Source of the DNA: Myxococcota bacterium
Lineage (GTDB): Bacteria > Myxococcota_A > UBA9160 > JAFDDA01
Direction of reading: 5' to 3'
DNA: 64,000 nt
Assembly (NCBI GenBank): GCA_965228475.1
Contig: OZ245817.1
Span: 1,696,001-1,760,000, forward strand
Made by a program: the position numbers and the translations under genes. Under the pieces are notes generated by a model, which had not been told where the DNA came from, did not search any database, and saw nothing but the letters and a program-made list of their open reading frames with translations. Below, in pieces: positions 12,145-55,841 of this stretch (position 1 is the first letter of the stretch; every line of letters begins with the position of its first letter).

Positions 12145-12171
12145 TAAAGACCGCGTGTGACTCGCCGATCC
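12145..12171 (+). promoter_or_regulatory. sigma28-like promoter upstream of the kinase/sigma54-activator pair
   Basis: TAAA-N15-GCCGATCC. Confidence 0.55.
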
Positions 12172-12209
12172 CTGGGCCTGTAGGTGGCTCAAAATGAGGG
12201 GGATCGAAA

Positions 12210-13013
12210 GTGAGTCAGCGGAAGGCATCGCGGCCTGAAAGGCCGGACGCTTCAGATCGCACGGCACGGGCCCCCGAGGCGCCGGCCTGCGAGCCGCCCT
12301 CCGAGATCCGGCTGCCCGCCTCCGTCGCCCACGAACTCGCGAACCCGCTCGTCGCGATGACCCAGGCCGTTTCGGTCCTGCGCGGAAGCCTCGAGGATCC
12401 CGACGACGTCGAGCTCGCCGACTGCGTCCTCACCGAAGGGCGCCGCCTCCGCCGCCTGATCCAACGCTCCGCGGCGGCGGGGTGGCGGCCGGTTCGCGCC
12501 GTCGACGCCACCGCCATCGAAGAGTTGATCCACGCCGTGGTCGCCCTGGTCCGACTCGACCCGCGCGCGCCCGCCGACGTCCGCTTCCACCTGCGCCTCG
12601 AGCCCGGCCTCGAACCCATCCCGATGGACCGCGACGCCGTGACCCAGGTGCTCTGGAACCTCGTGTTGAACGCCGTCCAGGCGGTGGACCGGGAGGGCAA
12701 CGTGACGGTCCTCGCCGAGCGGGCCACCGGCGGAGGCCTGCGCGTGGAGGTCCGGGACGACGGCCCGGGGGTTCCGGCGGGCGACGTCGAGGGTCTCTTC
12801 GCGACCGGCGTGAGCCTTCGCGCGGAAGGAACCGGCCACGGGCTCGCCGTCTCGCGGGAGATCGTCGAGGCCCACGGCGGGGCGCTGACCTTCGAACCCT
12901 CGGAGTCGGGCGGCGCCCGGGTCCGCTTCTTGCTCCCCCGCAACGGCCCTCCCTCGCACGCAGGAACCTCGGAAACCCAAACGGACCCCACGGGCTCGCG
13001 CCCGACGAACTGA
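12210..13013 (+). CDS. Small cytoplasmic histidine kinase with no evident sensor domain
   Basis: AHELANPL, NLVLNAVQA, DDGPG, GTGHGL. Confidence 0.85.
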   Translation: MSQRKASRPERPDASDRTARAPEAPACEPPSEIRLPASVAHELANPLVAMTQAVSVLRGSLEDPDDVELADCVLTEGRRLRRLIQRSAAAGWRPVRAVDATAIEELIHAVVALVRLDPRAPADVRFHLRLEPGLEPIPMDRDAVTQVLWNLVLNAVQAVDREGNVTVLAERATGGGLRVEVRDDGPGVPAGDVEGLFATGVSLRAEGTGHGLAVSREIVEAHGGALTFEPSESGGARVRFLLPRNGPPSHAGTSETQTDPTGSRPTN

Positions 13014-13029
13014 GCAAGGAGCACGAGAC

Positions 13030-14418
13030 GTGTCCCAGATTCTCGTCGTCGACGACGAAAAGACGATCCGCATGGCCCAGGCCACGGCCCTGCGGCGAGC
13101 GGGTTTCGACGTAGAAACCGCCGCCACGGGGGAAGAGGCCGTGGCGATGGTGCGCGACACCCCCTTCGGCCTGGTCCTGAGCGACGTTCGGCTCCAGGGG
13201 ATGGACGGGATGGAGGTGCTGCGCGCCGTCCGCGCGGCGAGCCCGGGCACCCAGGTGATCCTGATGACGAGCTTCGGCACCGTCGAGGACGCCGTCGAGG
13301 CGATGCAGCTCGGCGCCCACAGCTACGTCCGCAAGCCCATCGAGATGGCCGACCTCGAGCCGATCGTCCGCGAATGCCTCGCGGCGGGCGGCAGCGGGGC
13401 GGAGTCCGCGGCGGCCCCGCCGAGCCAGCGCGCCGACGCCGGGCGCGATTCCTTCGCCGGCATCATCGGCGACTCCCGCAAGATGCGGGAGCTGCTCGAG
13501 CTCGTCGGCAAGGTCGCCGACACGGACAGCACCGTCCTGATCACCGGGGAGACGGGCACCGGCAAGGAGCTCGTCGGGCGCGCGATCCACAACGCGAGCC
13601 GGCGCCGCGAGCGCGTCTTCAGCGCAGTGAACTCGGCGGCCTTCCCCGAGACGCTCCTCGAAAGCGAGCTGTTCGGGCATCGCCGCGGAGCCTTCACCGG
13701 AGCGAGCAGCAACAAGAAGGGGCTGTTCGAGCACGCCCACCAGGGCACGGTGTTCCTCGACGAGGTCGCCGAGATGCCGCTCTCGATGCAGGCGAAGCTG
13801 CTGCGCTTCCTGCAGACCGGCGAGATCCGCCCCGTGGGCGGGGAGGCCACGCGTCTCGTCGACGTCCGCCTCGTCACCGCCACCAACAAGAATCTCGAGG
13901 ACGAGGTCGCCCGCCGAACGTTCCGGGAAGACCTGTACTACCGGCTGGCGGTGATCCCGGTGCACGTGCCGCCGCTGCGCGACCGCATCGAGGACGTCCC
14001 GCTCCTGGCGCGCCACTTCCTGCGCGGCTTTGCTGCGAAGATCGGGAAGGACGTCGGCGAAGTGAGCGACGAGGCCATGCAGGCCCTGCTCGCCTACGAC
14101 TGGCCCGGCAACGTGCGCGAGCTCGAGAACTCGATCGAGCGCGCCGTGGCCCTCTGCCGCACCGATCGCGTCCTGCGCGACGACCTGCCCGGGCGCATCC
14201 TCGAGCGCCGCGTCGCCCTGCCGTCGAACGGCATCCAGAGCCTTCAGACCCTCGAGCGCGCCCACATCATCGACACGCTCGAGAAGGTCGGCTGGAGCCG
14301 CAAGCGCGCGGCCGAGCTGTTGAACATCTCCACCACCACGCTCTGGCGCCGGCTCAAGGAGTTCGGGATCGACGCGTCCGCATCGCGCCCGCCCGAGTCC
14401 GTCCAGCCGCAGCCCTAG
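13030..14418 (+). CDS. NtrC-family sigma54-dependent response regulator (REC-AAA+-HTH)
   Basis: ILVVDDE, LVLSD, GETGTGKE, ELFGH..GAFTGA, FLDE, WPGNVREL, Fis-type HTH. Confidence 0.93.
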   Translation: MSQILVVDDEKTIRMAQATALRRAGFDVETAATGEEAVAMVRDTPFGLVLSDVRLQGMDGMEVLRAVRAASPGTQVILMTSFGTVEDAVEAMQLGAHSYVRKPIEMADLEPIVRECLAAGGSGAESAAAPPSQRADAGRDSFAGIIGDSRKMRELLELVGKVADTDSTVLITGETGTGKELVGRAIHNASRRRERVFSAVNSAAFPETLLESELFGHRRGAFTGASSNKKGLFEHAHQGTVFLDEVAEMPLSMQAKLLRFLQTGEIRPVGGEATRLVDVRLVTATNKNLEDEVARRTFREDLYYRLAVIPVHVPPLRDRIEDVPLLARHFLRGFAAKIGKDVGEVSDEAMQALLAYDWPGNVRELENSIERAVALCRTDRVLRDDLPGRILERRVALPSNGIQSLQTLERAHIIDTLEKVGWSRKRAAELLNISTTTLWRRLKEFGIDASASRPPESVQPQP

Positions 14419-14472: not shown

Positions 14473-15048
14473 ATGGCCGAAGAAGAGACCACCGAAAGCA
14501 CCGAGGAAGAAGCCGCCGCCGAAGGCGGAGGCAAGAGCTCGCTCATCATGATGATCGGCGCTGCGGTCGCGGCGCTCGGCGTCGGGGCGGGCGCGGCCTA
14601 CGTGGCGATCAAACCCGATGCGGACCGGCTCGCCGAGCTCGAGGCCCAGGTGGCCGCGGAGGGCGAGATCGAAGCCGGCGACGCCGCGACGATGGAGGAG
14701 GGCGCCGAGGCGACGGGAGACGTCGCCGCCGGCGGCGAAGCCTTCGCCGAGCGCGTGCTGGCCCTCGAGCCCTTCGTCGTGAACATCACGGGCCACGACT
14801 ACGCCCGCTACCTGAAGGTGAAGATCGAGCTCGAGGCCGAATCGCCCACCGTGCGAACGGAGCTCGAGGAACGCCTGCCCCAGGTGCGCGACGGCGTGAT
14901 CGTCCTGCTTTCCTCTCGCCGCCTCTCGGACGTGACGGACTTCGAGGGGAAGGTGCTGCTCAAGGAGGCCATCGCCGAGCGCATCAACGGGATGCTCGAG
15001 TCGGGCGCGGTCCGGCAGGTGATGTTCACGGAGTTCGTCGTCCAGTGA
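14473..15048 (+). CDS. fliL: Flagellar basal-body protein FliL
   Basis: N-terminal TM; LEPFVVN, RYLKV, FTEFVVQ. Confidence 0.92.
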   Translation: MAEEETTESTEEEAAAEGGGKSSLIMMIGAAVAALGVGAGAAYVAIKPDADRLAELEAQVAAEGEIEAGDAATMEEGAEATGDVAAGGEAFAERVLALEPFVVNITGHDYARYLKVKIELEAESPTVRTELEERLPQVRDGVIVLLSSRRLSDVTDFEGKVLLKEAIAERINGMLESGAVRQVMFTEFVVQ

Positions 15049-15977
15049 GTGAAGGGGCCGTCCGCGGAGACGTCCTCTCGCGGGACGAGCTCGATGCGCT
15101 CCTGGCCACCCTGGCCGACGAGCGCAGCGAGAAGGATGGCGAGCGCGCGGGCGCCGGCCGCGAGGGCGGACGCGCGCGCGCCTCTGCGCCGACCGCACTG
15201 GGACGCCACCTCGAACACTGGGCCCACGAGCAGGCCCGCCGCCTTTCCTCGGTCCATCAGACGACCGTCCAGTTTCCGCTCTCCCGTTGGGAGACCATGT
15301 CCTCCGGCGAGCTCGCCGAGGCCATTCCTCCCTCGGACCTCCTGACGGTCGTCGAGTTCTCGCCGAACAACGCCGTCGGCTACCTGTGGCTCGGCCGTCC
15401 GCTGCTCTTCTCGATGATGGCGCTCTCCTACGGCGCACCGAGCGTCAAGGCTGCCGCGCCGGTGGCGCGCCCGTACACGCGGATCGAGAAGCGCTACTAC
15501 CGCCACTTCTCGAGCGAGCTGCTCTCGACCCTCGATGCCGCCTGGCAGGATCTGGTGGAGCTTCGCTCCCGCGTCCTCACCGTGGACGGTCTCGACCGCC
15601 TCTACGAGGACGCCCACGACCCGATGCTCGTCGCCACCTTCGAGGTGGAGGGCCTTTCGGACTTCGGGCGGATGCGTCTGGCGCTGCCGGCGGGGCCCTT
15701 CGAATCCCTGGCGGGCAGCCCCGCGCGGGTCGCACCCACGCGGCGCTGCGAGCTCGAGGACGCCGTGCTCGACACCGCGGTTTCCCTGCGAGTCGAAGCC
15801 GGGGGACTCGACCTGACCCTGCGTGCCCTCGCCGGGCTCGAGGTCGGCCAGGTGCTTCCGCTCGACACCGAGCGGGATGGCGAATTCGTGGTCCGGATCG
15901 AAGGGCGCCCGAAGTTCCGGGGGCTGCGGGGGGCCGTGGGCAACCGGCTCGCGATCCAGATCACCGAACGGCTCTAG
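15045..15977 (+). CDS. fliM: Flagellar motor switch protein FliM (divergent middle domain)
   Basis: LSRDELDALL CheY-binding-like N-terminus, RPYTRIE, C-terminal SpoA domain; synteny. Confidence 0.85.
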   Translation: MSEGAVRGDVLSRDELDALLATLADERSEKDGERAGAGREGGRARASAPTALGRHLEHWAHEQARRLSSVHQTTVQFPLSRWETMSSGELAEAIPPSDLLTVVEFSPNNAVGYLWLGRPLLFSMMALSYGAPSVKAAAPVARPYTRIEKRYYRHFSSELLSTLDAAWQDLVELRSRVLTVDGLDRLYEDAHDPMLVATFEVEGLSDFGRMRLALPAGPFESLAGSPARVAPTRRCELEDAVLDTAVSLRVEAGGLDLTLRALAGLEVGQVLPLDTERDGEFVVRIEGRPKFRGLRGAVGNRLAIQITERL

Positions 15978-16007
15978 GCCTCGCGAGTTCGCGAGGGGAG
16001 AAGAGAG

Positions 16008-16346
16008 ATGTCCGAAGAAGCGACCGTCGAGAACGCAGAAGAGATCCCGCAGGAGGCTGCGCCCGCCGCCGCAGGCATGGAGGCGCAGAAGGCCGGCGAC
16101 GGCCTCGATCTCGTCCTCGACGTCCCGTTGCACGTGACCGTCGAGGTCGGCGGCGCCCGCATGAACGTCCGCGAGATCCTCCAGCTCGCGAAGGGCTCGG
16201 TGGTCGAGCTGGATCGCTCCTCGGGCGAACCCGCCGACGTGCTCGTCAACGGGCGCGTGGTGGCGCGGGGAGAACTGACGGTCGTCGACGACCAGGTCGC
16301 GGTGCGGATCGTCGAAGTGGTCGGAACCGCGGGCGCCGGGCACTAG
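16008..16346 (+). CDS. fliN: Flagellar motor switch protein FliN
   Basis: LVLDVPLHVTVEVG, GSVVELD, VNGRVVARGE. Confidence 0.93.
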   Translation: MSEEATVENAEEIPQEAAPAAAGMEAQKAGDGLDLVLDVPLHVTVEVGGARMNVREILQLAKGSVVELDRSSGEPADVLVNGRVVARGELTVVDDQVAVRIVEVVGTAGAGH

Positions 16347-16381
16347 GCCGGCGTCCGGGGAAGGAAAGGGGGCACCGGGGG

Positions 16382-17449
16382 GTGTGGCTCGAATCCGTAT
16401 CGGCTCTGCTCATGGTCCTGGGCGTCTTGATCGCCCTGCGGCTCGCCTTGCGCGGCGTTCTGCCCCGGGTCTCGGCCCGTCGGAGCGTCCGCGTGACGGA
16501 GTCCTGTGCGCTCGGTGGGAAGCAGCGTCTCCTGGTCGTCGAGGTGGACGGGGAGCGGCTCCTGCTTGGGGCCGGGGAAGGCTCGATCGAACTCCTTCGC
16601 GAGCTCCCGCCGGCGCCGGCCAAGGAATCGGAAGAAGCGAGCGACGGGCCGGACGTGGAGGGCTGGTGGCAGACCGTGCGCCAGGTGCTCCGCACGGCGG
16701 GGATCGGCGCGGCCCTGGCGCTGTGTCTGGGGGCCGCGGAGCCGGCCTTCGCCCAGACCGTCTCGACCGCGGGCGACGGCTCCTCCGTGACCCTCTCCCT
16801 CGAGGGCGCCACCGCGCCGGATCGAATTTCGTCGACGCTGCAGATCGTCCTGCTGATGACGCTGCTCTCCGTCGCACCCTCCCTGCTCCTGGTCGCGACG
16901 TCCTTCACGCGCATCGTCATCGTGCTGTCGCTGTTGCGGCAGGCCATGGGCATCCACCAGCTCCCGCCGAACCAGATCATCGTCGGTCTCGCGCTCTTCA
17001 CCACCTTCTACGTGATGGCGCCGGTCGGAGCCGAGATGAAGGAGACGGCCTACGACCCCTACGTCGCCGGGGAGATCGGGGAGGAGGAGCTTCTCGAGCG
17101 CGGCGTGAAGCCCGTGCACACCTTCATGACCCAACACACGCGGGAGTCGGACCTGGCGCTGTTCGCCGACCTCGCGGGCAAGACCCTGCCCGAGGATCCG
17201 GCCGACATCCGCTTCTCGAACCTGCTCCCGGCGTTCCTGATCAGCGAGATCCGCACGGCCTTCGAGATCGGCTTCATGGTCTATCTGCCGTTCCTGATCG
17301 TGGACCTCGTCATCGCGAGCATGCTGATCTCGATGGGCATGATCGTCCTGCCCCCGATCATCATCTCCCTTCCGTTCAAGATCATGCTGTTCGTCCTGCT
17401 CGACGGCTGGAACCTGATCATCAAGGCCCTGGTCTCGGGATTGCTGTAG
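16382..17449 (+). CDS. fliP: FliO-FliP fusion (single open frame)
   Basis: FliO-like TM + LGGKQRLLVVEVDGERLLLG continues without a stop into FliP (TSFTRIVIVL, PPNQ, LPFLIVD, PFKIMLFVLLDGW). Confidence 0.85.
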   Translation: MWLESVSALLMVLGVLIALRLALRGVLPRVSARRSVRVTESCALGGKQRLLVVEVDGERLLLGAGEGSIELLRELPPAPAKESEEASDGPDVEGWWQTVRQVLRTAGIGAALALCLGAAEPAFAQTVSTAGDGSSVTLSLEGATAPDRISSTLQIVLLMTLLSVAPSLLLVATSFTRIVIVLSLLRQAMGIHQLPPNQIIVGLALFTTFYVMAPVGAEMKETAYDPYVAGEIGEEELLERGVKPVHTFMTQHTRESDLALFADLAGKTLPEDPADIRFSNLLPAFLISEIRTAFEIGFMVYLPFLIVDLVIASMLISMGMIVLPPIIISLPFKIMLFVLLDGWNLIIKALVSGLL

Positions 17450-17451
17450 GC

Positions 17452-17721
17452 ATGGAGATGGAGCAGATCACGACGCTCTTGCGCTCGACGATCTTCACGG
17501 CGCTGCTGGTCTCCTCGCCGGTGCTGATGGCGGCGCTGTCCGTCGGTCTCATCATCTCGATCCTGCAGGCCGCAACGCAGGTGAACGAGCAGACCCTCAC
17601 CTTCGTGCCGAAGATCGTCGCCGTGCTGGGCACCTTCGCGCTGCTCTTCCCGTGGATCTTCGGGACGGTCCGCGACTACGGCATCTACCTGATGGAATAC
17701 GCCGTGAAGGTCGCGCCATGA
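17452..17721 (+). CDS. fliQ: Flagellar export protein FliQ
   Basis: VGLIISILQAATQVNEQTLTFVPK. Confidence 0.93.
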   Translation: MEMEQITTLLRSTIFTALLVSSPVLMAALSVGLIISILQAATQVNEQTLTFVPKIVAVLGTFALLFPWIFGTVRDYGIYLMEYAVKVAP

Positions 17722-17737
17722 GCAGCGGAGCTCCTTC

Positions 17738-18511
17738 ATGAGCGTCCACTTCGCGATGGACGAGGTCGTGCTGCTGATGCTCGGCGCCATCCGAATGGCG
17801 GCGTTGCTGCTCTCGGCACCGATCTTCGGTCACATGGCCGTTTCGGCACGGGTGCGCGTGATGATCGCGCTCTCGGTGGTCCTGGCGCTGCCGCTCGAGC
17901 CGGCCCCCGGATTCGACCCGAGGGAACTCTCGGCGATCGTCCTGCTCGCGGCGGGCGGCCGGGAGGTCCTGATCGGCGTGATGATCGGCTTCGGGACCCG
18001 GCTTCTGTTCGCGGCGTTCAGCCTCTTCGGCGAGATCCTCTCGATCGAATCGGGTCTTTCCCACGCCCGCGTCCTCGACCCGAACACCGGCGGGACCTCG
18101 GTGGCGCTCGCCTCGTTGTTCGACCTCTTCGTGATCGGCGTCTTCTTCGCGGTGGGCGGCCATCACTGGATGATCGAGACCTTCGCGCTCTCCTTCCAGA
18201 CCTGGCCGATCGGAGGAGGGGCCCCCGCTGCCGGGTTCTTCTTCGAGATCGCGAGCATGGGCGGAAAGCTCTTCAGCATGGCGCTCCAGCTCGCCATGCC
18301 CGTGGTCGTCGCGATGACCCTTTCGAACCTGGGGCTCGGCATCCTCGCGCGCGCGGTGCCCCAGCTCAACTTGATGATGCTGCAGCTCCCGGCCCACGTG
18401 GTCATGGGGCTCGCCATGTTGAGCTTCGGCTCGGGCGCGCTGATCCGCGCTTCCGGGCGGGAGATCCTCGCGTGGAGCGAGATGCTCGCTCGGCTGGTCG
18501 GAGGGGTCTAG
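17738..18511 (+). CDS. fliR: Flagellar export protein FliR
   Basis: APIFG, polytopic membrane protein, RAVPQLN; synteny. Confidence 0.9.
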   Translation: MSVHFAMDEVVLLMLGAIRMAALLLSAPIFGHMAVSARVRVMIALSVVLALPLEPAPGFDPRELSAIVLLAAGGREVLIGVMIGFGTRLLFAAFSLFGEILSIESGLSHARVLDPNTGGTSVALASLFDLFVIGVFFAVGGHHWMIETFALSFQTWPIGGGAPAAGFFFEIASMGGKLFSMALQLAMPVVVAMTLSNLGLGILARAVPQLNLMMLQLPAHVVMGLAMLSFGSGALIRASGREILAWSEMLARLVGGV

Positions 18512-18514
18512 TCC

Positions 18515-19603
18515 ATGGCCGAAGGCGAAAAGACCGAGCCGGCCACCGCGAAGAAGCGGCAGGACGCCCGCGACCAGGGCGACGTCGCGACCTCGCGTGA
18601 GGTGCCGTCCGTGCTCGTACTGCTCGTGGTGCTGATCGGCCTCCTCGCCGGCATCGGCACGTCGGTGGTGTCGACCGTCGGCACGCAGTCCTACGACGTC
18701 TGGAGCGGCAAGGAGATCCACCCGACGACGATGGCGGACTTCCACGCCGTCCTGATCCACCACGGCCAGCGCACCATGATCGCCCTCACGCCCATCCTCG
18801 GCCTGATCATGCTGGCGGGACTCGCGAGCTACTGGCTCCAGACCGGACCCATGTGGGCGAGCAAGGCGCTCGGCTGGAAGTGGAGCCGCGTCAGCTTCTT
18901 CAAGGGCATGAAGCGGCTGGTGGACAAGAACAAGATCTTCGAGCTGGCGAAGGCGCCGGTCAAGATCGCGATCATCGTCGTGGCCGCATGGTTCACCATC
19001 GCCGACGACCTCGAGCAGGTCTACGTCCTGGTCGACGCCTCGATCTGGACGGCGATGACCGAGATGGGCCGCATGGCGGTCGAGATGTGCATCCTCGCGA
19101 TCATCATGCTCACCTTCCTGGCGATCGCCGACGTCTTCTGGACGCGGTATCGCCACGAAGAGAAGCTCAAGATGACCAAGCAGGAGGTCCGCGACGAGCA
19201 CAAGCAGCGCGACGGCGACCCGCAGATCAAGAGCCGCATGCGCCAGATGCAGCGGGAGCTCACGCGACAGCGCATGATCCGCGACGTCGCGGAGGCCGAC
19301 GTCGTGGTGACCAACCCGACGCACTTCTCCGTGGCCCTCTCCTACAAGCAGGCGGCCGCCGGCGCACCGAAGGTGATCGCCAAGGGGCGCGGATACGTCG
19401 CGCTCCGCATCCGGGAGGAGGCGCGAAAGCACGGCATCCCCCTGGTCGAGAACCGGCCCCTGGCCCAGGTCCTCTACAAGACCGTCGAGGTCGGGCGCGA
19501 GGTGCCCGAGAACCTCTATCAGGCCGTGGCCGAGGTGCTGGCCTACGTCTACCGCCTGCGCGGGGGCCGCCCGGCGCCCGCCGCCGCGGCCGGGGTGGCC
19601 TGA
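18515..19603 (+). CDS. flhB: Flagellar export protein FlhB
   Basis: EKTEPAT, KMTKQEV, GDPQIK, NPTH autocleavage motif. Confidence 0.95.
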   Translation: MAEGEKTEPATAKKRQDARDQGDVATSREVPSVLVLLVVLIGLLAGIGTSVVSTVGTQSYDVWSGKEIHPTTMADFHAVLIHHGQRTMIALTPILGLIMLAGLASYWLQTGPMWASKALGWKWSRVSFFKGMKRLVDKNKIFELAKAPVKIAIIVVAAWFTIADDLEQVYVLVDASIWTAMTEMGRMAVEMCILAIIMLTFLAIADVFWTRYRHEEKLKMTKQEVRDEHKQRDGDPQIKSRMRQMQRELTRQRMIRDVAEADVVVTNPTHFSVALSYKQAAAGAPKVIAKGRGYVALRIREEARKHGIPLVENRPLAQVLYKTVEVGREVPENLYQAVAEVLAYVYRLRGGRPAPAAAAGVA

Positions 19604-21681: not shown

Positions 21682-22849
21682 ACGTTTCTCGGCGCCGACC
21701 ATGCTCGAGGCCGTGCAGCAGGTGAAGGCCGCGCTCGGGCCGGATGCGCTCGTGCTCGACACGCGAACGGTCCGGAAGGGGCAGGGGCCCTTCGGCCTGC
21801 TCGGCCGAACGTGGGTCGAGGTCACGGCCGCGGCCGAGCGGAGCGAAGCGACGACGGACTCCCCCGAGTCACGAAGGTCCACGAGAGCGGCCGCGCCGCA
21901 CGAAGGGGAGGGCCGCGTCGACGCGAACGTCGCGCGCGAACTCCGCGCCCTGCGCGAACGGATCGACGGTCTGGACCGCGCCGGCGCGAACCAGGACGAA
22001 GCGCTCCAGGAACTCGCGGAGCTCCGGGCCTGGACGGCCGAGCTCGCCCGCGGACGAAGGCCGGAAGGCGAGGGGCCCATCGAAACCCGGCTCGCTGGTC
22101 ACCTGCTCGCCGGTGGGCTCGCCCCGCGCCATGCGTGGGTCCTCGGGCGCGCGGCTGCGGCCCGGCCCGAGGTCGGCCAGGACGAGCGCGCCGCCCTGGC
22201 GGCCGCGCTGCGGGCGGAACTCGACGATCGCATGCTCCCGCCCCGGGCCGACGACGGCATCGAGGTCGAGTTCTTCGTCGGCCCGACCGGCGCCGGCAAG
22301 ACCACGACCCTGGCCAAGCTGGCGGCGCGCGGGAGGGAGGAGCCTGGCGGCGTCGCGCTGGTCACCACCGACGTCCATCGTCTGGGCGCGGTCGAGCAGC
22401 TCGAACGCTACGCCGGGAGCCTCGGCGTCCCCTTTGCGACGGCCGGCGACGCCGAAGCGCTCGGGGAGCGCATCCGGGCACGGCCCGCGCGACGGGTGCT
22501 CGTCGACACGGCGGGCCGCAGTGCCGATCCCGAAGCCCTCGCCGGCCTACGCCGCCTGCGCGATGCGGCGGGCGGCCCCACGCGAGTGAGTCTGGTGCTC
22601 TCGGCCACGGCCGGCGCCGAGCAGCTCGCGCACGAACGCGAGCGCTACGCACCGCTCGGACCGGAGGCGCTCGTGCTGACGAAACTCGACGAGTGCGTCT
22701 CCTTCGCACCCGCCGCGAATCTGCTCCTCGACGAGACCACGCCTCCGCTGTCCTGGACGGCGACGGGACAGCGCGTCCCGGAGGACCTCCGCGTCGCCGA
22801 GCCCGAACCGTTCGCGCACGCGCTGCTCGGCGTGGAGGGCCGCCCGTGA
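21671..22849 (+). CDS. flhF: SRP-family GTPase FlhF
   Basis: MHIKRF..., GPTGAGKTTT, DTAG, TKLDE, GQRVPED. Confidence 0.92.
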   Translation: MHIKRFSAPTMLEAVQQVKAALGPDALVLDTRTVRKGQGPFGLLGRTWVEVTAAAERSEATTDSPESRRSTRAAAPHEGEGRVDANVARELRALRERIDGLDRAGANQDEALQELAELRAWTAELARGRRPEGEGPIETRLAGHLLAGGLAPRHAWVLGRAAAARPEVGQDERAALAAALRAELDDRMLPPRADDGIEVEFFVGPTGAGKTTTLAKLAARGREEPGGVALVTTDVHRLGAVEQLERYAGSLGVPFATAGDAEALGERIRARPARRVLVDTAGRSADPEALAGLRRLRDAAGGPTRVSLVLSATAGAEQLAHERERYAPLGPEALVLTKLDECVSFAPAANLLLDETTPPLSWTATGQRVPEDLRVAEPEPFAHALLGVEGRP

Positions 22850-24512: not shown

Positions 24513-24537
24513 CGGAAGGTGATTCGGAGGACGCGCC

Positions 24538-26276: not shown

Positions 26277-26292
26277 TGGCACGCGCCTTGCT
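26277..26292 (+). promoter_or_regulatory. sigma54 -24/-12 promoter of the flgF operon
   Basis: TGGCAC-GCGCC-TTGCT. Confidence 0.85.
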
Positions 26293-37289: not shown

Positions 37290-37302
37290 CGCGCGGGTGA
37301 TG

Positions 37303-41155: not shown

Positions 41156-41171
41156 TGGCACCGATCTTGCT
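41156..41171 (+). promoter_or_regulatory. sigma54 promoter of the pseB operon
   Basis: TGGCAC-CGATC-TTGCT. Confidence 0.85.
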
Positions 41172-48328: not shown

Positions 48329-49416
48329 CGGGCCTCCCCAGCGCTTCCGGCCACGCCTTCCCGGCACGGGAGACGCGTCCGGCCTCCGGTCTCGTCATCG
48401 GCACGAAGCGTGCGGGACAGGAGGAGATCGAGGATCCGGGCCGCTCCACGGCCGTCTCCGAGCAACGCCTTCGCCCGGGCCGCGCTCGACTCCCGGAAGG
48501 CCGCGTCGAGGAGGCTTCCTTCGAGCAGGGCTCCGACGGCGTCCGGGTCGAGGGATCCGCCGTATCCGCCCGCGACCCCGACGCCGCGCGCCTCGAGGCG
48601 GTGGGCATGGGGGACGTCGGATGCGTGGTGGGTGAAGCTCACGAAGGGGACGCCGAGCCAGGCGAGCTCCTGGGCGGTCGTCCCGAAGCCGATCACGGCC
48701 GCCGCCGCGCGGCGCGCGAGGGCGACGAAGTCGGCGCGGGGCAGGGCGCGGTGCACGGTGAAGCCGGCCTCGCGCGCGCGCTCGGCAACGGCGTCGGGCC
48801 GGGCGAAGGAGGGCCCGACGACGGCGTGCAGCGCCGGCGCCGAGGCTCCGCGCCAGCGGCCGGCCGCCTGCGCGACGGGTTCGAGGAGCCGTTCGGTCAG
48901 GCCGAGGGGGTCGGCTCCGCCGAGCGAGAGCAGGAAGACGTCGCGTTCATGGTTCGCAGCAAGCGGTGCGGCGCGAACCGCCTCCGGAACGATGCACCAG
49001 TCGGCGCCGGCTCGAATGCGAGGATGTTCCGTTGGCGCGGCGTGGAGGACGGGCAGGACGGTCGCATCCGCCACATCGGCGAGATCCGTTCGGTCGAGGA
49101 CCAGCGTTGGCCAGCCCGCCTCGGCCAGGGCGATGACGTCCTCACGGCATGCGTCGCGGGTATCGAAGAGGGCGGCGCGGGGCTTCGCGTCGGTCGCGCC
49201 GATCAGATCGGCGCCGCGGTCCCACGGCCGGCACGGAACGCCCGGCAGCTCGCTCTTCACCCACGCGCGGCCGCTCTCGTCCCCGCGCAGCGCGACGCTG
49301 GCGCGCAGGCCGCGGGCCAGGGCTTCGCGCACGAGCTCCGCGCTCCGCATCACGTGTCCGAGGCCGGTCTCCCGCCCCCCGGACACGACGAAGAGGAGCT
49401 CGGGCCCGCTCGTCAC
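48325..49416 (-). CDS. pseG: PseG/SpsG-like UDP-sugar hydrolase
   Basis: GLGHVMRS, SLGGADP, VVGP, FGTTAQEL, G.GA.RI. Confidence 0.75.
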   Translation of the reverse strand: MTSGPELLFVVSGGRETGLGHVMRSAELVREALARGLRASVALRGDESGRAWVKSELPGVPCRPWDRGADLIGATDAKPRAALFDTRDACREDVIALAEAGWPTLVLDRTDLADVADATVLPVLHAAPTEHPRIRAGADWCIVPEAVRAAPLAANHERDVFLLSLGGADPLGLTERLLEPVAQAAGRWRGASAPALHAVVGPSFARPDAVAERAREAGFTVHRALPRADFVALARRAAAAVIGFGTTAQELAWLGVPFVSFTHHASDVPHAHRLEARGVGVAGGYGGSLDPDAVGALLEGSLLDAAFRESSAARAKALLGDGRGAARILDLLLSRTLRADDETGGRTRLPCREGVAGSAGEAR

Positions 49417-50375
49417 AAGCTTGCCCCGAGCGACCGGCGCGTGGCCCGAAGCGGGCGCAGGCCATCCCCCGGGTCGGCTCGCCAGGCCCGCTCCGCTCGC
49501 TCCGAGGGGGCGGCCGACTTCTCACCGCTGCCGTCCGCGGCGCGGCCGCAGCGGACCTGGCGGATCAGCTCTTCCATGGCCTCGGGCAGCCAGCAGTGCC
49601 CCGCGGAGAACTCTTCCCCTTCGCCTTCGAGGTCGAGGTGGAACTCGACCATCTCGGCACCGTGGGCGTGGACCGCGCGGTGGATCACGCCGGGCTCGAG
49701 GCTGTGGTCGCTCCAGCCGACGCGGAAGCGCCCGGCCCCGGGCGCCAGGCGTCGCAGCGTATCGATGGCCGAGAGGTTCGCTTCGTCCGCGGGCATGGGA
49801 TAGGTCGACACGCAGTGGAGGACGGTCAGGTCCTCGGCTCCGGCCGCGGTGGCGACTTCGATGGCGTGGGCGACCTCCGCGTGGTCCGCCATGCCGGTCG
49901 AGAGCACGAGCGGCAGGCCCGTGGCGGCGCAGGCGGCGATCAGTCCGTCCCAGAGAAGCTCGTAGGAGGCGACCTTGTAGAAGTCGACGTGGGGTTCGAG
50001 CTCCTCAACGGCGCGCAGGTCGAAGGGCGTGCAGCCGAAGCCGATGCCGAGCTCGCGCGAGCGCTCCGCCAGCGGGGCCAGGAAGTCGACGGGCAGTTCC
50101 CAGCGCTCGCGCTCGCGATGCTCCGGGCTTCGCGCCAGGACCTCCGGGGCGAAGAGCTCCCCCACCCGGAAGAGCTGGAACTTGACCGCGTCGCAGCCGA
50201 TCGCCGCGGAGCGTTCGACGAAGGCCAGACAGCGCTCGAAGTCGCGGTGGTGGTTGCTCGAGACCTCGGCCACGAAGCTCGGGGTGCGCCGGCTCCAGTC
50301 TGCGGGGTTCTCCGCCCGGAAGCTTCTGCCCGAGGCGGCCTCCGGCGCGTTTCGTGCTGCAACGTTGCGTTTCAT
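49413..50375 (-). CDS. pseI: NeuB/PseI-family nonulosonic acid synthase lacking the C-terminal SAF domain
   Basis: FVAEVSSNH, AVKFQ, TPFD, KVASYE, LSTGMA, LHCVS.YP, GWSDH, EFH; start uncertain. Confidence 0.85.
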   Translation of the reverse strand: MKRNVAARNAPEAASGRSFRAENPADWSRRTPSFVAEVSSNHHRDFERCLAFVERSAAIGCDAVKFQLFRVGELFAPEVLARSPEHRERERWELPVDFLAPLAERSRELGIGFGCTPFDLRAVEELEPHVDFYKVASYELLWDGLIAACAATGLPLVLSTGMADHAEVAHAIEVATAAGAEDLTVLHCVSTYPMPADEANLSAIDTLRRLAPGAGRFRVGWSDHSLEPGVIHRAVHAHGAEMVEFHLDLEGEGEEFSAGHCWLPEAMEELIRQVRCGRAADGSGEKSAAPSERAERAWRADPGDGLRPLRATRRSLGASL

Positions 50376-50449
50376 CTTGAAACCCCACCCGGAAGGTTCT
50401 TCCCGTTCGAGGAGCCATCGCGGCCCCTCGAAGCCCGAAAGCTCGAATG

Positions 50450-50465
50450 TGCAAGAGGCATGCCC
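50450..50465 (-). promoter_or_regulatory. sigma54 promoter of pseI-pseG-pseF
   Basis: Minus strand GGGCAT-GCCTC-TTGCA. Confidence 0.65.
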
Positions 50466-50497
50466 CGTTTCCGGCCCCGGGGCCGGATCTCGGGGGT

Positions 50498-50513
50498 TGG
50501 CATGACGCTTGCT
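50498..50513 (+). promoter_or_regulatory. sigma54 promoter of the hypothetical-PilZ-TPR-activator operon
   Basis: TGGCAT-GACGC-TTGCT. Confidence 0.8.
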
Positions 50514-50586
50514 CATTCCTTCGCCCGGGGGAGCCGCGCGGCCCGGCACCGGGCTCGACGCCGCCGGACCTCCACAGGGGGGAAGC

Positions 50587-51192
50587 ATGATCTGCATTCG
50601 ACACAACGGAGTGGAGCGGAAGACCGCGGGGGACGGCATGGCCAGCCTCGCGGATCTCGTCCGCTGGAGCTGCGGGGAGGCCGGGCTCTGCGAGGAGATC
50701 GTGGTCGACTGCCGGGTGAACGGCATGCCCCTCGACGAAGAGCGCATGGCCGCCCTCGATGCCGTGCCGATCGATCAGCTGGCCGAGGTCGAGCTCGAGA
50801 CCCGGGCACCGCGCACCATCGCGCTGTCGAGCCTGTCGAGCTCGCGCGAGTACACCGACCGCGTGCGCGAGGCGCTCGGGCGGACCGCCGGGCTGCTCCG
50901 CGAGGGCCAGGTCGAAGCGGCCAACCAGCTCTACGCCGACGCGATCGATGCGCTCTCGGTGCTCGTCTACGCGATCAGCACCGCCGGGCAGCAGCTCGGC
51001 GAGGAAGCGTCGCCCCTCCATCACATCGAGGCGGAGGTCCAGCCCTGGCTCGGGGAGCTCGTCGACGCCCAGTCCACCCGCGATTGGGTTCGGGTGGCGG
51101 ACTACCTCGAGTACGAGATGGAGCCGATCCTCGCGGATTGGGCCCGCCGCATCGACGGCGTGCGCAGCGGCTGCGAGGCGGATCATGTCTGA
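50587..51192 (+). CDS. Conserved-looking hypothetical protein (flagellar-locus associated)
   Basis: ATG after GGGGG; helical body ending DWVRVADYLEYEMEP; follows a sigma54 promoter. Confidence 0.7.
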   Translation: MICIRHNGVERKTAGDGMASLADLVRWSCGEAGLCEEIVVDCRVNGMPLDEERMAALDAVPIDQLAEVELETRAPRTIALSSLSSSREYTDRVREALGRTAGLLREGQVEAANQLYADAIDALSVLVYAISTAGQQLGEEASPLHHIEAEVQPWLGELVDAQSTRDWVRVADYLEYEMEPILADWARRIDGVRSGCEADHV

Positions 51193-51724: not shown

Positions 51725-53790
51725 GCAGGGCGGCCCGGCTCGCGGTCTTCCTCGTGGCCTTCGTTGCGACGGCGGCGGGGTCCGTGCTGCAGGCTTCGGC
51801 CATGCCGTCGCCCTACCGCGTCGTGCGGATCGGTGCGCTCAAGACGCCGCCGCTCGACGCCTACGGCTTCTGCGTTCCGGGCGACGTCGACCCGGACCTG
51901 CGCCAGGTCGCCGAGACCGCGGCCAGCAGCGGCGCCGAGGCGGCGGCCTCGAGCCTCGAGGCGCTCTCGGAAACGCCGGGCTTCGACCCGGAGGGAATCA
52001 CCCTGGTGCGCGCCGGTCTGGCGGCGCGCCTCGCAACGGACGGGCGCAGCCAGCGCGAGGCCCGCGAAGGCCTGCGCCTGGCGATGGCCGCGGGCGGGCC
52101 GCCCGGCGCGATCGCCTGCGCACGGCTCGAATCCGCCCGCCTCGAGATCCACTCCGCGCGCTATCCGGAAGGCGCGGCCCAGGCCGCCCTGGCCCTCGCC
52201 ATGCGGAGTCAGATCGCGGATCCGGTCCCGATCGGCGACGCCGCCTCGTTCTACCGCGCCGAAGCGCTCTACCTGGCAGGCCACCTCGACCGGGCCGCCG
52301 AGCAGTACCGCCGCCTGGCCGCCACGCCGCGCGTCCGGACGGCCGCCGCCGCACGCCTGCGTCTCGCCGACGTCCGCTTCGACGGCGGGGACACCCTCGG
52401 CGCGCGCGGGGACTACGAGGCGTTGCTCGCGAAGGCCGAGGTCTTCGGTGCGAGCGTCGACGGCTGGGCGCTGCGGGCGGCCGAGACCGCCTTCACCGCC
52501 GAAGACGTCGCGGCCGCCGCGAACTGGCTCCAGCGGTTCCTGTTGGCCGACGTGGATCGGGACGTCCGGGGCCTCGCGGAAATCCGCCTGGCCGACGCCT
52601 ACGCCGCCGGCGGCGACGCCAAGGCGAGCCGTGAGGCGCTCGAGCGCGTGATCGAGGCCCACGGGGAGAACGCGATCGGCCTGCTGGCCGAGGTGCGCGG
52701 CTTCGATCTCGGCGTGACGAACGTGCCGTCCGAGCAGCAGGCCGAGCGGCTCGCCGTCGCGGGTCGGCATCCCACCCTCGGTCTCTCCCTCTACGCGCGC
52801 GCCGCGCTCGGGCGGCTCCTGCGCGATCGCCACGAGATCGACGCCGCCCTCGAGGTGCTGACGGCCCTCAGCTACGAGTCGCCGCCGCTCGAACTGGCGC
52901 CGACGCTCAGCGAGGACATCGATGCCGTGATGGCGCTGGCCGCCTCGACGGTCCGGGGCGAAGACGGCTGCATGGCCTTCGTCGAGCGCGCCGGGGCGCA
53001 CAGCGCATCGCTCTCGCGAAGTGCCGGGAACCCGGAGCCGTTCCAGACGCTCGCCTCGTGCTACGAGCACCTCCGGCTCCCGTCGCTGGCCCTGAAGGTG
53101 CATCGGGAGCTCATCCGCGCCTTCGGCTCGGAGCTCGGTGAGGAGGCCGCACTTCCCGTCGCCCGCGCGGCCTTCGCCACCGGCGACGTGAGCCTCGCGC
53201 GGACCGCGGCCGTCGCCGGCGTACGGCGCGGCGGCGAACGCCGGGATGCCTGGGCACTCCTGCTCGGCGAAGCCGAGCGCGTCGAAGGGCGCCTCGATGC
53301 GGCGGCCGAACAGCTCCTGCCGCTCGTCGAGGCGGGCAAGCCCGAGGCCGACCCGGTGGCCGCGATCCTCGCCTTGGCGCGCACGGCCGTGAAGCGCAAA
53401 GCCGCGGACGACGGACGGACCCCGCTCTCGGCAGCACTCGACCGGCTCGATGCGGCGCAGCGGCTGGCCGGCGGCGAGCGGCTCGGTGAGGCCGCCAAGC
53501 TCACCGCCGAACTCTTCCGCAAGCGCGGCGAGGCTGGACGCGCCGCCGAGCTCTACCAGCTGGCCCTCGACCGCCTCGCCGACGGCGTGCAGCGCGCCGA
53601 ATCCGCCTATTGGCTCGGCGCGCTCACCGAGGACGAAGCGGTGCGGACCGATGCCTGGCGCATCGCGGCGGAGATGAAGGAAGGCGGATCCTGGAGCCGG
53701 CTCGCGCGCAGCGAGGAGGCGCTCCGTCCGCTCCGGCAGAAGGTCGGCGGGGGCGAAGGGCCGCCCGCCAGCGCGGAGGGGGGACGATGA
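51709..53790 (+). CDS. Large exported/anchored TPR-repeat protein
   Basis: Hydrophobic N-terminus; TPR-like helices (FYRAEALYLAG, RLADVRF, RLADAY). Confidence 0.7.
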   Translation: MRIVLGRAARLAVFLVAFVATAAGSVLQASAMPSPYRVVRIGALKTPPLDAYGFCVPGDVDPDLRQVAETAASSGAEAAASSLEALSETPGFDPEGITLVRAGLAARLATDGRSQREAREGLRLAMAAGGPPGAIACARLESARLEIHSARYPEGAAQAALALAMRSQIADPVPIGDAASFYRAEALYLAGHLDRAAEQYRRLAATPRVRTAAAARLRLADVRFDGGDTLGARGDYEALLAKAEVFGASVDGWALRAAETAFTAEDVAAAANWLQRFLLADVDRDVRGLAEIRLADAYAAGGDAKASREALERVIEAHGENAIGLLAEVRGFDLGVTNVPSEQQAERLAVAGRHPTLGLSLYARAALGRLLRDRHEIDAALEVLTALSYESPPLELAPTLSEDIDAVMALAASTVRGEDGCMAFVERAGAHSASLSRSAGNPEPFQTLASCYEHLRLPSLALKVHRELIRAFGSELGEEAALPVARAAFATGDVSLARTAAVAGVRRGGERRDAWALLLGEAERVEGRLDAAAEQLLPLVEAGKPEADPVAAILALARTAVKRKAADDGRTPLSAALDRLDAAQRLAGGERLGEAAKLTAELFRKRGEAGRAAELYQLALDRLADGVQRAESAYWLGALTEDEAVRTDAWRIAAEMKEGGSWSRLARSEEALRPLRQKVGGGEGPPASAEGGR

Positions 53791-54461
53791 CCGCTTCGCG
53801 TGGAAGTCGCCCCGAACACGCCGGCGCCGAGCCGCCGGAGCGCAGCGTCGTGGCGGCCGCCCGCGTGGTCGGTCTGCGCACACCGCTCTCGAGGATCCGC
53901 CTCGTGGCCGATCGGCTCCGCGACCCGGCCGGCGCCGGTCTCGCGCAGCAAGCTTCGAGCCTCGACGACGCCGTCGACGCGGTCGATCGTGGGATCCAGG
54001 AGATCCTGGCCGTCCTGGTGCCGCCTCGGGCCCTGGGGCGCTCGGTCGAGGTCGGCGATTTCCTCGCGACGCTTCGCGGCCGGACGGCGCCCTCGCTCCG
54101 TGCGCGCGGCATCGAGTGGTTGGAAGAAGGCGGCGAAGCGCCGGGCATCGAAGCTCCCGCGAGCCTGATCCACGAAGCCGCCGTGGCCCTCGTCCGCGAT
54201 GCGGCGGCGGCGGGGGACGCGGGATCGCAGTTCCGCCTGCGCGGGGTGACCGCCGGACCCGAATCCTGGGGGCTCGAACTCAGCGTCGAACCGCCGCTCG
54301 CCTGCGCGGAAGAGGAGCCCTTCGACGTCACCGCCGAGTGGGCCCTCCGCCAGGGCGCGACCCTCGAAGTGCACGCCGCCGGCGCCACCGTCTGGCTCGG
54401 GGGGGCCGAACCGAATCCCGCGTTCCGCGGCGGAGGGGAGGGCGCATGCCCCGCCTCCTGA
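53787..54461 (+). CDS. Degenerate histidine-kinase-like protein (no phospho-His, eroded ATP boxes)
   Basis: VVGLRTPLSRI in place of HELRTPL; ALVRDA in place of NL..NA; no DxGxG or GxGL; coupled to the downstream activator. Confidence 0.55.
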   Translation: MTASRGSRPEHAGAEPPERSVVAAARVVGLRTPLSRIRLVADRLRDPAGAGLAQQASSLDDAVDAVDRGIQEILAVLVPPRALGRSVEVGDFLATLRGRTAPSLRARGIEWLEEGGEAPGIEAPASLIHEAAVALVRDAAAAGDAGSQFRLRGVTAGPESWGLELSVEPPLACAEEEPFDVTAEWALRQGATLEVHAAGATVWLGGAEPNPAFRGGGEGACPAS

Positions 54462-55723
54462 TCCTCGAACGGGACGAGCGGCTGCGGGCAGAGTTCCGAC
54501 GGGTCGCCGGCGAGTGCGGTTGGGAGGCCGCCGAGCTGCCCGCGCGCGCCGCGGAGGCCCTGGAGCCGAGCGACCTCCCGGCGTTCGACGTCGCCCTCGT
54601 CACCGTCGAGGACCATCGGGATCTCGAGACGATCGACGTCCTGCGGCGGGAAGCGCCGTCCTCCTCGGTCCTGGCGGCCGGCGCTTCGCCGGGGCTCGAC
54701 GTGGCGATCGCGGCGATGAAGCGCGGCGCGCGCGACTTCCTGCGCAAGCCCTTCGGTGCCGGCCGGCTCGCGTCGGCCCTGGCCGCGGCGCTGCCCGAGC
54801 GGCCCCGCGCCGACGCCGAGCCCCTGCTGACGCGAGATCCGGGCATGGAGCGCGTCCTCCGCCAGATCGACGCCGCCGCGGCGACCGAAGCCACGGTGCA
54901 GATCGTCGGGGAAAGCGGGACCGGCAAGGATCTCCTGGCCCGGCGACTCCACCGGCGCAGCGCCCGGCGCGAGGCCCCCTTCGTCGTGGTGAACTGTGCG
55001 GCGCTCCCGAGCACCCTCGCCGAGAGCGAGCTGTTCGGCCACGAAGCCGGCGCCTTCACGGGCGCTCGGGAGGCTCGCCTGGGCCAGTTCACGAGCGCCG
55101 ACGGCGGAACCGTCCTGCTCGACGAAGTGAGCGAGCTCTCCCTGGAACTCCAGCCGAAGCTCCTGCGCGTGCTCCAGGAGAGAGAGGTGCAGCCCGTCGG
55201 CGCGCTCAGTCCGAAGCCCGTCGACGTGCGGGTCGTGGCGACGAGTCAGCGCCCCCTCGCCGCGGAGTCCGCCGCGGGCCGCTTCCGCGAGGATCTCCAC
55301 TACCGCCTCGACGTGATCGTGCTCCAGGTGCCGGCCCTGCGGGAGCGCCCCGAAGACATCCTCTTCCTGGCGGAGCACTTCCTCGAGCGCTTCGCCGAGG
55401 CCAACCGCTGCGCCGCGCCGCGCCTGACGGACGCCGCACGCCGCGCCCTGCGCCGCCACCCCTTCCGCGGGAACGTGCGCGAGCTCGAGAACCGGATGCG
55501 GCGGGCCGTCGTGCTCCATCCCGGCGCCGCGCTCGCGCCCGAGCAGGTCCTCCCCGAAGCGGAGGTCGAGAAGCCGAGCGGCTTCAACCTCCGGGAGGTC
55601 GAACGTCAGGTGATCGCCCGATCCCTCGCCGAGACCGGCGGCAACCGGACGCGCGCTTCGCAGCTCCTCGGCATCAGCGTCCGAACCCTTCGCAACAAGC
55701 TGAAGCTCTACGAGCTCGCCTAG
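54446..55723 (+). CDS. sigma54-dependent activator with atypical receiver domain (FlrC/FleR position)
   Basis: GESGTGKD, ELFGHEAGAFTGA, LLDE, GNVRELEN, HTH; REC reads DVALVT at the phospho-Asp position. Confidence 0.9.
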   Translation: MPRLLILERDERLRAEFRRVAGECGWEAAELPARAAEALEPSDLPAFDVALVTVEDHRDLETIDVLRREAPSSSVLAAGASPGLDVAIAAMKRGARDFLRKPFGAGRLASALAAALPERPRADAEPLLTRDPGMERVLRQIDAAAATEATVQIVGESGTGKDLLARRLHRRSARREAPFVVVNCAALPSTLAESELFGHEAGAFTGAREARLGQFTSADGGTVLLDEVSELSLELQPKLLRVLQEREVQPVGALSPKPVDVRVVATSQRPLAAESAAGRFREDLHYRLDVIVLQVPALRERPEDILFLAEHFLERFAEANRCAAPRLTDAARRALRRHPFRGNVRELENRMRRAVVLHPGAALAPEQVLPEAEVEKPSGFNLREVERQVIARSLAETGGNRTRASQLLGISVRTLRNKLKLYELA

Positions 55724-55825
55724 GACGCACGAAGGCGACCCGGCAGATCTTTCCCATGCCCCGTTTCAAGCTGAAGCATCGACCCCCCAGGCGTTCCGGA
55801 ACGGGCGCCAGAGGCCGCAACCGGC

Positions 55826-55841
55826 TGGCACGTCCCTTGCT
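55826..55841 (+). promoter_or_regulatory. sigma54 promoter of the flgB operon
   Basis: TGGCAC-GTCCC-TTGCT. Confidence 0.88.

Follow-up and report, generated by a model that had tools for sequence, protein, structure and literature searches.

A possible sigma-54 to sigma-28 to FlrBC relay without FlgM in a flagellar block of a Myxococcota bacterium

Which sigma factor opens a flagellar gene block that contains no fliA, and what delays flagellin when no FlgM can be found? This question is raised by a 64,000-nucleotide (nt) stretch of DNA from a Myxococcota bacterium (assembly GCA_965228475.1, contig OZ245817.1; G000:C1:1696001-1760000), referred to here as the window, which lies in a single-contig genome of 5.0 megabases with a guanine-plus-cytosine (GC) content of 70.5%. 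To our knowledge, sigma-28 acts last in the flagellar hierarchies studied so far and is held back through the secretion of FlgM, and the Myxococcota have, as far as we know, long been regarded as a non-flagellated phylum. An earlier interpretation made from the letters of this DNA (the sequence-only reading) had proposed a rewired hierarchy with sigma-54 on flagellin and sigma-28-like boxes on regulators and stators. Our analysis confirmed its observations in part and lends partial support to its interpretation.

We favor a relay running from sigma-54 to sigma-28 and on to FlrBC with sigma-54, operating without FlgM, to which we give even odds (a probability of about 0.5). Outside the block, a conserved PAS kinase and an NtrC-type activator would switch on fliA through a sigma-54 promoter. 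FliA, which the order appears to keep irrespective of flagella, would read boxes of the type TCAAG/TAAAG-N15/16-GCCGAT, two of which would serve the block, one before motA1B1 and the other before the operon running from flrB and flrC through fliLMN to flhBAFG. Next, FlrC and a FleQ-like activator would act on the sigma-54 promoters ahead of the genes for the rod, ring, hook, glycosylation, and flagellin. FlgM would take no part, and the late checkpoint would be translational, with CsrA binding a GGA hairpin and the Shine-Dalgarno sequence of the flagellin leaders and FliW relieving this binding. We infer from motifs and their conservation which sigma factor reads which box, in what order the steps occur, and which activator serves which promoter.

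A more general version is offered tentatively, at clearly less than an even chance. It holds that a resident, order-wide FliA/WhiG-family sigma factor, itself switched by sigma-54, may be the master entry of a dispensable island of about 67 kilobases (kb), with sigma-28 placed above FlrBC and the export gate, no FlgM, and CsrA/FliW as the sole assembly-coupled check on flagellin. If true, the order of sigma factors would be interchangeable, with the logic of assembly kept and the checkpoints moved to translation, and the lineage would keep the same sigma factor for cyclic di-GMP and ATPase genes in members without flagella. The locus would then provide a concrete model of how an accessory flagellar block plugs into the existing regulators of its host, which bears on the gain and loss of motility in the Myxococcota.

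The resident fliA gene and the search for flgM

As the sequence-only reading had stated, no fliA follows flhG; an HDOD-domain gene and a 64-amino-acid (aa) open reading frame (ORF) are found there, and a Pfam scan of the 150 window ORFs revealed no sigma-70 region 2 or 4 domain. The sigma-28-family factor that it had expected elsewhere, independent of FlgM, was located at 2,162,482-2,163,159, about 402 kb from the window, as the single gene that passes the FliA/WhiG model TIGR02479 (278.1 bits; cut-off 189.6). The genes around it encode a PAS kinase (divergent; kept in 57 of 80 related loci), a REC-AAA-HTH activator (upstream; 73 of 80), a PP2C phosphatase (convergent; 70 of 80), and a large response regulator (66 of 80). 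A -24/-12 box of the form TGGCAY-N5-[GC]TGCT stands 5′ of fliA in all 79 related loci with sufficient upstream sequence, and in this genome it reads TGGCATGAGCCGTGCT, about 96 nt before the ATG. Sigma-54 would thus act ahead of sigma-28, at fliA itself. The earlier proposal that sigma-28 sits upstream and drives the kinase/activator pair therefore finds support in the box before that pair, present in seven of seven readable flagellated genomes (see below), but has to be amended at the top, where sigma-54 precedes sigma-28.

Of 31 relatives, 28 have FliA, 12 FlgI, and 11 flagellin; among the 21 good genomes of the order, the numbers are 21, 10, and nine. The FliA/WhiG-family sigma factor is not flagellum-specific and is also present where flagellar genes are missing. 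In a phylum-wide sample of 121 genomes, 69 exceed the FliA cut-off. The flagellar block, in turn, appears to be accessory and dispensable. In the same-genus genome G001 (89% complete), a 79-kb contig (C111) matches the flanks of the block up to window position 10,259 and again from 77,479, and about 5 kb, including a homolog of the VWA-domain gene at 24766-26130, replaces the roughly 67 kb in between (G000:C1:1706260-1773480). G001 has FliA and yields no FlgI or flagellin matches.

Between flgJ and flgN, where the sequence-only reading had reported no flgM, the two genes overlap by 4 nt and nothing lies between them. A genome-wide profile search with PF04316 gave no hits at E values up to 1, and the best hit of TIGR03824 (E 0.24) was rejected as FlgM because it lies in the N-terminus of an MgtE transporter. 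Genome searches for fliA/whiG and flgM thus returned the former and not the latter, and the flgM gene of a FliA-FlgM hook-completion checkpoint was not found in this genome. Nor is there a conserved ORF beside fliA; downstream of it are only inverted repeats, with no DNA match in the 80 related loci. Two such repeats, long and near-perfect, fill the space from fliA to the convergent PP2C gene (L010:2100-2470) and are not conserved in related loci.

Sigma-28-type boxes in the genome and before flrBC

A sigma-28 promoter consists of TAAA or TCAA followed, after 15-16 nt, by a GCCGATAA-like element. Sites of the form TCAA-N15/16-KCCGATR occur 36 times in the genome, against 0-3 times at each other spacing. 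A matrix was built from 33 genomic sites of this form, with wrong spacers as the null; iterating it merely strengthened the TCAA element, and the seed matrix with wrong-spacer controls was used instead. Non-coding hits scoring at least 15.5 numbered 41 with the 16-nt spacer and 15 with the 15-nt spacer, compared with a mean of 6.1 over ten wrong spacers, and hits scoring at least 18 numbered 25 and 5, compared with 0.8, the on-spacer counts including the seed sites.

The genes behind this class encode GGDEF, EAL, and PilZ proteins, T2SSE ATPases, single-domain response regulators, cNMP-binding proteins, and a cyclase. Many TCAAG-N16-KCCGATR boxes end 7 nt before an ATG or GTG (e.g., G000:C1:1807010, 1857049, 2411360, and 4501966), a distance that implies leaderless messenger RNAs and suggests a class of such transcripts for signaling genes. 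In the window, the minus-strand box ending at 3241 lies 5′ of genes for a T2SSE-family ATPase (2011-3144) and a kinase (712-1998), and it recurs before the T2SSE ortholog in five of five relatives that lack FlgI and flagellin. At the T2SSE ortholog of L180 (G009:C166), four tandem GGAATCGAGGTCAAGCC copies precede the conserved box, so that the -35 element is repeated. The TAAA-type boxes, at eight genomic sites, gave no flagellar signal; the genes that they precede are mixed and include the gpsA region and those for a TonB receptor, a LuxR regulator, and a Roadblock/small-GTPase pair. One of them, TAAAG-N16-GCCGATTG at G000:C1:3364375 (L049), stands 5′ of a Roadblock/LC7 protein and a small Arf-like GTPase, an MglB/MglA-like pair.

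These boxes might be real promoters that are read by another sigma-70-family factor, with FliA serving a different or smaller regulon, which we consider improbable. Five further sigma-70-family genes reach about 83-109 bits with the FliA model, most of the genes that follow the boxes are non-flagellar, and box counts do not cleanly separate FliA-positive from FliA-negative genomes across the phylum. Nevertheless, GCCGAT(A/G) at 15-16 nt after TAAA/TCAA is the sigma-28 consensus, one gene only exceeds the FliA/WhiG cut-off, and within the order all 19 FliA-positive genomes hold 7-22 boxes each, while the single FliA-negative genome holds none.

The box before flrB has the canonical form TAAAG-N14-GCCGAT and is one of just eight TAAA-N15-17-CCGAT sites in the genome. 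A sigma-28-type box precedes flrBC in all seven flagellated genomes with a readable region, five of them by pattern and two as looser variants (TTAAG, GCCGAA). Pattern equivalents were found in G006, G019, G021, and G023, where the spacer between motB1 and flrB/C is otherwise unalignable. The looser variants, recognized by eye, are TTAAG-N15-GCCGATTC in G013 and TCAAG-N14-GCCGAAAC in G005, where the strict pattern search 5′ of the kinase gave nothing. G004 and G027 were outside this count, their contigs ending in the flrB region, and no FlrC orthologs were recovered in G002, G024, and G028, where just paralogs of up to 49% identity were seen. The kinase 5′ of the FlrC ortholog in G005 (G005:C90) exceeds 480 aa, compared with 267 aa in the window, so that the sensor part varies within the order.

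It is very improbable that the boxes in the block are chance matches and that only the sigma-54 layer is real. The boxes before flrB and motA2 do have matrix scores at background level, and the wrong-spacer controls yielded many hits scoring 10-12. However, base composition predicts about 1.5e-4 strict T[ACT]AAG-N15/16-GCCGAT matches per 300-nt region, yet a match or near variant occurs in seven of seven unalignable orthologous regions, and about 85% of the hits in the score band of the motA1 box exceed the wrong-spacer background. A CCGAT element stands 5′ of motA1 in four of four relatives, with variable -35 parts.

Thus, among the five sigma-28-like motifs named by the sequence-only reading, those at 15 (+), 3215-3241 (-), and 10340 (+) score well, the one before flrB scores weakly and is conserved in seven of seven readable genomes, and the one before motA2 stands at chance level. 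The last is not supported as a promoter; of the two relatives with motA2, one (G006) shows CCGAA in a comparable position and the other (G027) no such element. The assignment of such boxes to regulators and stators is accordingly supported for motA1B1 and, by conservation, for flrBC, and not supported for motA2. Neither the box at 15 nor that at 3241 belongs to the block.

No sigma-54 box with up to two mismatches was detected within 350 nt 5′ of flrB in the window or in the syntenic G006, and 5′ of flrC two boxes with two mismatches were seen in G023 only. The only conserved promoter-like element found 5′ of flrBC is of the sigma-28 type. No terminator-like site was found on the plus strand between 9300 and 14600, and a sigma-70 consensus scan of the in-window part of the block returned no recognizable housekeeping promoter. 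Since the sigma-28 and sigma-54 types are the sole promoter types found in the block, and both activators lie behind them, the simplest entry would be the resident sigma-28 at flrB and motA1. With its box before the long flrB...flhG operon, sigma-28 would supply both the export gate and the FlrBC-like system.

The main rival, which we judge less likely than the relay, is a conventional polar hierarchy headed by the FleQ-like activator and started by an unrecognized housekeeping promoter or an outside activator, in which the sigma-28 boxes are a late or auxiliary feed-forward. An auxiliary role of this kind has a parallel in the sigma-D promoter 5′ of the fla/che operon of Bacillus subtilis. 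The block does hold a FleQ-like activator with a degenerate receiver, the genome encodes 22 activators, motAB under sigma-28 is a textbook late class, the sigma-70 scan had low power, and sigma-28-like boxes occur at fliC and one paralog. On the other hand, what precedes the FleQ-like gene is a conserved sigma-54 promoter and not a recognizable sigma-70 promoter, the sigma-28 type is the only conserved element before flrBC, and the FlgM that would delay sigma-28 was not found.

Sigma-54 promoters, flagellin, and CsrA/FliW

All seven sigma-54 boxes that had been claimed for the window were confirmed by motif scan, and all seven recur at orthologous promoters of flagellated relatives. Five are strict TGGCAY-N5-BTGCW sites, and all seven carry the GG and GC dinucleotides 10 nt apart of TGGCAC-N5-TTGCW. 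The positions given earlier for the minus-strand boxes, 37303 and 50450, are the low ends of their spans. In a genome-wide spacing control, TGGCAC-Nx-TTGC[AT] had 22 matches at x = 5, whereas each of the other spacings between x = 1 and x = 11 gave 0-2; a looser pattern occurs 53 times at the right spacing and 5-14 times at others, and five of these 53 sites fall in the window, which makes up 1.3% of the genome. The genome encodes RpoN (459 bits) and 22 sigma-54 activators, two of them in the window.

Recurrence was counted in six flagellated relatives with conserved gene order. The flgF box was kept in six of six, the fliC box in five of six, and the GNAT-strand box in four of six; the counts were 5/5 relatives for flgB, 3/3 relatives with pseB for the pseB box, 2/2 relatives scanned for the PilZ operon, and 2/2 for pseI, whose box has one mismatch in G006 and two in G027.

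The genome carries five flagellin genes, fliC in the window and four outside the block that are 82%, 80%, 62%, and 62% identical to FliC. The conserved element upstream of fliC is the sigma-54 box, the sigma-28-like box at 37631 being weak. In G006, which lacks the sigma-54 box at fliC, GCTCATC-N15-GCCGATAC is found at the place equivalent to 37631. Of 20 flagellin loci with at least 63% identity to FliC, 19 had a sigma-54 box with up to two mismatches and 17 had one with up to one mismatch, compared with 0 of 6 among more distant copies. The upstream boxes of the four outside flagellins differ from one another; one is a perfect sigma-54 box, and another reads TCAA-N16-GCCGAAC. The earlier placement of sigma-54 on flagellin is therefore supported for fliC (5/6 syntenic relatives) and has to be qualified by the weak box at 37631 and by the four other flagellin genes.

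The flgKL operon ends in the adjacent genes csrA and fliW, both of which are kept in six of six relatives. The fliC leader contains two predicted CsrA sites, a hairpin with GGA in its loop and the Shine-Dalgarno sequence, and in a consensus fold of nine flagellin leaders, compensatory changes were found in seven of the eight stem pairs, with GGA in the loop. The gene adjacency and the covarying hairpin together fit a CsrA/FliW partner switch, in which flagellin would be under translational control. The earlier suggestion that late timing passes to CsrA/FliW is thus backed by this covariation.

Several points weigh against the relay. The box before flrB has a matrix score of 11.1 and a genome rank of 753, and the support for it is its conservation; the conservation counts, moreover, are not independent because the relatives are kin. 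That FliA rather than another sigma factor reads the sigma-28-type boxes is our inference, and the phylum-wide box counts given above do not favor it. The block could be switched on without sigma-28 by any of the 22 sigma-54 activators, acting at the PilZ/FleQ or flgB promoters. The sigma-70 scan has little power at 70% GC, where shuffled sequences averaged only 0.1-0.6 hits. A divergent FlgM may have been overlooked by the searches because it is a short, poorly conserved protein. Finally, a second box, of a sigma-28-like type, may serve fliC, and the genome has four more flagellin genes elsewhere.

Known hierarchies and the layout of the block

In Vibrio cholerae and Pseudomonas aeruginosa, FlrA or FleQ acts first, followed by FlrBC or FleSR with sigma-54 and then by FliA with FlgM. 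The design of the present block is closest to this FlhF/FlhG polar program. It shares FlhF and FlhG, a pair of a cytoplasmic kinase and a REC-AAA-HTH activator, a second, FleQ-like activator, and rod and ring operons under sigma-54. In contrast to those systems, flrBC and the export-gate genes have a sigma-28-type and not a sigma-54 box; fliA lies outside the flhF-flhG operon and has a sigma-54 promoter of its own; FlgM was not found; csrA and fliW are present; and a single sigma-54 operon holds flgBC, fliEFGHIJ, and flgDE. A sigma-54-dependent flagellin, as here, is already known from V. cholerae, where, according to PMC7064773, the major flagellin gene flaA depends on FlrBC and sigma-54, and flrBC needs FlrA.

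The adjacent csrA and fliW genes and the leader with its GGA hairpin and GGA Shine-Dalgarno sequence resemble the CsrA-FliW-flagellin switch of B. subtilis hag, Campylobacter jejuni flaA, and Borrelia flaB. The hag leader of B. subtilis has a two-site CsrA layout, and both B. subtilis and C. jejuni have FlgM and depend on sigma-28 for the target flagellin. In contrast, the flagellin under control here would be transcribed by sigma-54 with no FlgM in parallel. Caulobacter crescentus has sigma-54 flagellins, no sigma-28, and a translational checkpoint by FlbT/FlaF. The present block is similar in its sigma-54 flagellins and in the shift of the late checkpoint to translation; it differs in that a sigma-28-family factor is kept, CsrA/FliW takes the place of FlbT/FlaF, and the early genes are, as far as visible, not under a CtrA-like regulator. 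The C. jejuni system is treated in PMC4894983.

WhiG of Streptomyces is a sigma-28-family factor used outside flagella, a subject of PMC7005675, PMC8325347, and PMC12871210. The resident sigma factor resembles WhiG in being kept without flagellar genes and in its likely regulon rich in cyclic di-GMP proteins, and it differs in belonging to another phylum and in apparently also feeding a flagellar block where one is present. Our search of the literature on flagella in Myxococcota metagenome-assembled genomes and on sigma-54 flagellin with CsrA/FliW, which covered texts with supplements outside its scope, found no description of this wiring; one preprint only mentions flagellar assembly genes in such genomes.

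The coordinates of the features are collected in Table 1. Because of the high GC content of the genome, ORFs were chosen by third-position GC content and then verified against Pfam. By these calls, the DNA from about 10,400 to the window end consists near-exclusively of flagellar genes. The block extends over about 67 kb, from about 10,300 to about 77,400 in window coordinates; past the window end come flgD and flgE and, as far as about 77,300, modification genes that include ATP-grasp genes. The genes from fliL to the 64-aa ORF are tightly packed downstream of flrBC, and fliA is not among them.

Table 1. Promoter-like boxes, genes, and leader elements (window positions unless a G000:C1 coordinate is given; score and rank refer to the sigma-28 matrix)
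Feature	Position	Strand	Details
Sigma-28-type box, TCAAG-N16-TCCGATGG	15-42	+	Score 18.0, rank 50; outside block
Sigma-28-type box, GTCAAG-N15-GCCGATAC	3215-3241	-	Score 20.7, rank 28; outside block, non-flagellar
Sigma-28-like box, TCCAG-N15-GCCGATGT	10340-10367	+	Score 15.7, rank 102; 5′ of motA1/motB1
motA1	10434-11192	+	Behind box at 10340
motB1	11199-12017	+	Behind box at 10340
Sigma-28-type box, TAAAG-N14-GCCGATCC	12145-12171	+	39 nt before flrB-like start
flrB-like cytoplasmic histidine kinase (267 aa)	12210-13013	+	Pfam
flrC-like REC-AAA-HTH sigma-54 activator	13030-14418	+	Pfam
fliL, fliM, fliN, (fliOPQ), fliR, flhB, flhA, flhF, flhG, HDOD gene, orf64	14473-24732	+	Pfam
flhF	21671-22849	+	
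flhG	22849-23661	+	ParA/CbiA
HDOD gene	23658-24512	+	
Sigma-54 box	26277-26292	+	Perfect TGGCAC-N5-TTGCW; flgFGAHIJ-flgNKL-csrA-fliW
flgFGAHIJ-flgNKL-csrA-fliW operon	26316-34406	+	Pfam
flgJ	30396-30731	+	4-nt overlap with flgN
flgN	30728-31237	+	
csrA	33682-33942	+	Pfam E 8.8e-24
fliW	33939-34406	+	Pfam E 5.6e-32
motB2	34430-35302	-	
motA2	35331-36098	-	
Sigma-28-like box	36121-36148	-	Score 8.2, rank >3000 (chance level); before motA2
GNAT gene	36147-37355	-	
Degenerate sigma-54 box, GGGCATCGAACTTGCA	37303-37318	-	GGGCAT-N5-CTTGCA, 2 mismatches; GNAT-motA2-motB2
Sigma-54 box, TGGCACGGGCCCTGCA	37542-37557	+	1 mismatch; fliC, 218 nt 5′ of start codon
Weak sigma-28-like box, GCTCATC-N15-GCCGATGC	37631-37658	+	Score 13.9, rank 211; fliC leader
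fliC leader hairpin	37713-37735	+	8 base pairs, AAGGA in loop; predicted CsrA site
Shine-Dalgarno GGAGGA	37749-37754	+	Predicted CsrA site
fliC	37760-38584	+	
fliD	38755-40236	+	
fliS	40289-40666	+	
FliT-like ORF	40663-41022	+	
Sigma-54 box	41156-41171	+	Perfect TGGCAC-N5-TTGCW; pseB operon
pseB, pseC onward through maf		+	Pseudaminic-acid/flagellin glycosylation genes, behind box at 41156
pseI and pseF-side genes	49416-50747 (pseI)	-	Behind box at 50450-50465
Degenerate sigma-54 box	50450-50465	-	GGGCAT-N5-CTTGCA, 2 mismatches; pseI and pseF-side genes
Sigma-54 box	50498-50513	+	1 mismatch; PilZ/second-activator operon
PilZ operon: unknown ORF, PilZ protein, 746-aa TPR-like protein		+	
PilZ operon: pseudo-kinase	53787-54461	+	
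PilZ operon: second activator	54446-55723	+	
Sigma-54 box	55826-55841	+	Perfect TGGCAC-N5-TTGCW; flgB operon
flgB, flgC, fliE, fliF, fliG, fliH, fliI, fliJ, fliK	55876-56262 (flgB)	+	Then flgD/flgE past window
Outside flagellin	G000:C1:3744141-3744956		82% identical to FliC
Outside flagellin	G000:C1:4261480-4262301		80% identical to FliC
Outside flagellin	G000:C1:2650472-2651278		62% identical to FliC
Outside flagellin	G000:C1:950532-951332		62% identical to FliC

Within the PilZ operon, the pseudo-kinase has a weak HisKA match, and the histidine of its H-box is replaced here and in five relatives; the second activator is FleQ-like, with a degenerate receiver domain, AAA, and HTH. The two resemble a pseudo-kinase/pseudo-receiver pair. 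The highly charged 64-aa ORF (orf64, 24538-24732) and the FliT-like ORF both end in [VL]D[IV]RA, and a 64-aa ORF with the C-terminus RVDIRA also stands 3′ of the HDOD gene in G027. Outside the block, TGGCACACCCCCTGCG lies on the minus strand at 9367-9382, about 50 nt 5′ of a VWA-domain gene (7117-9315).

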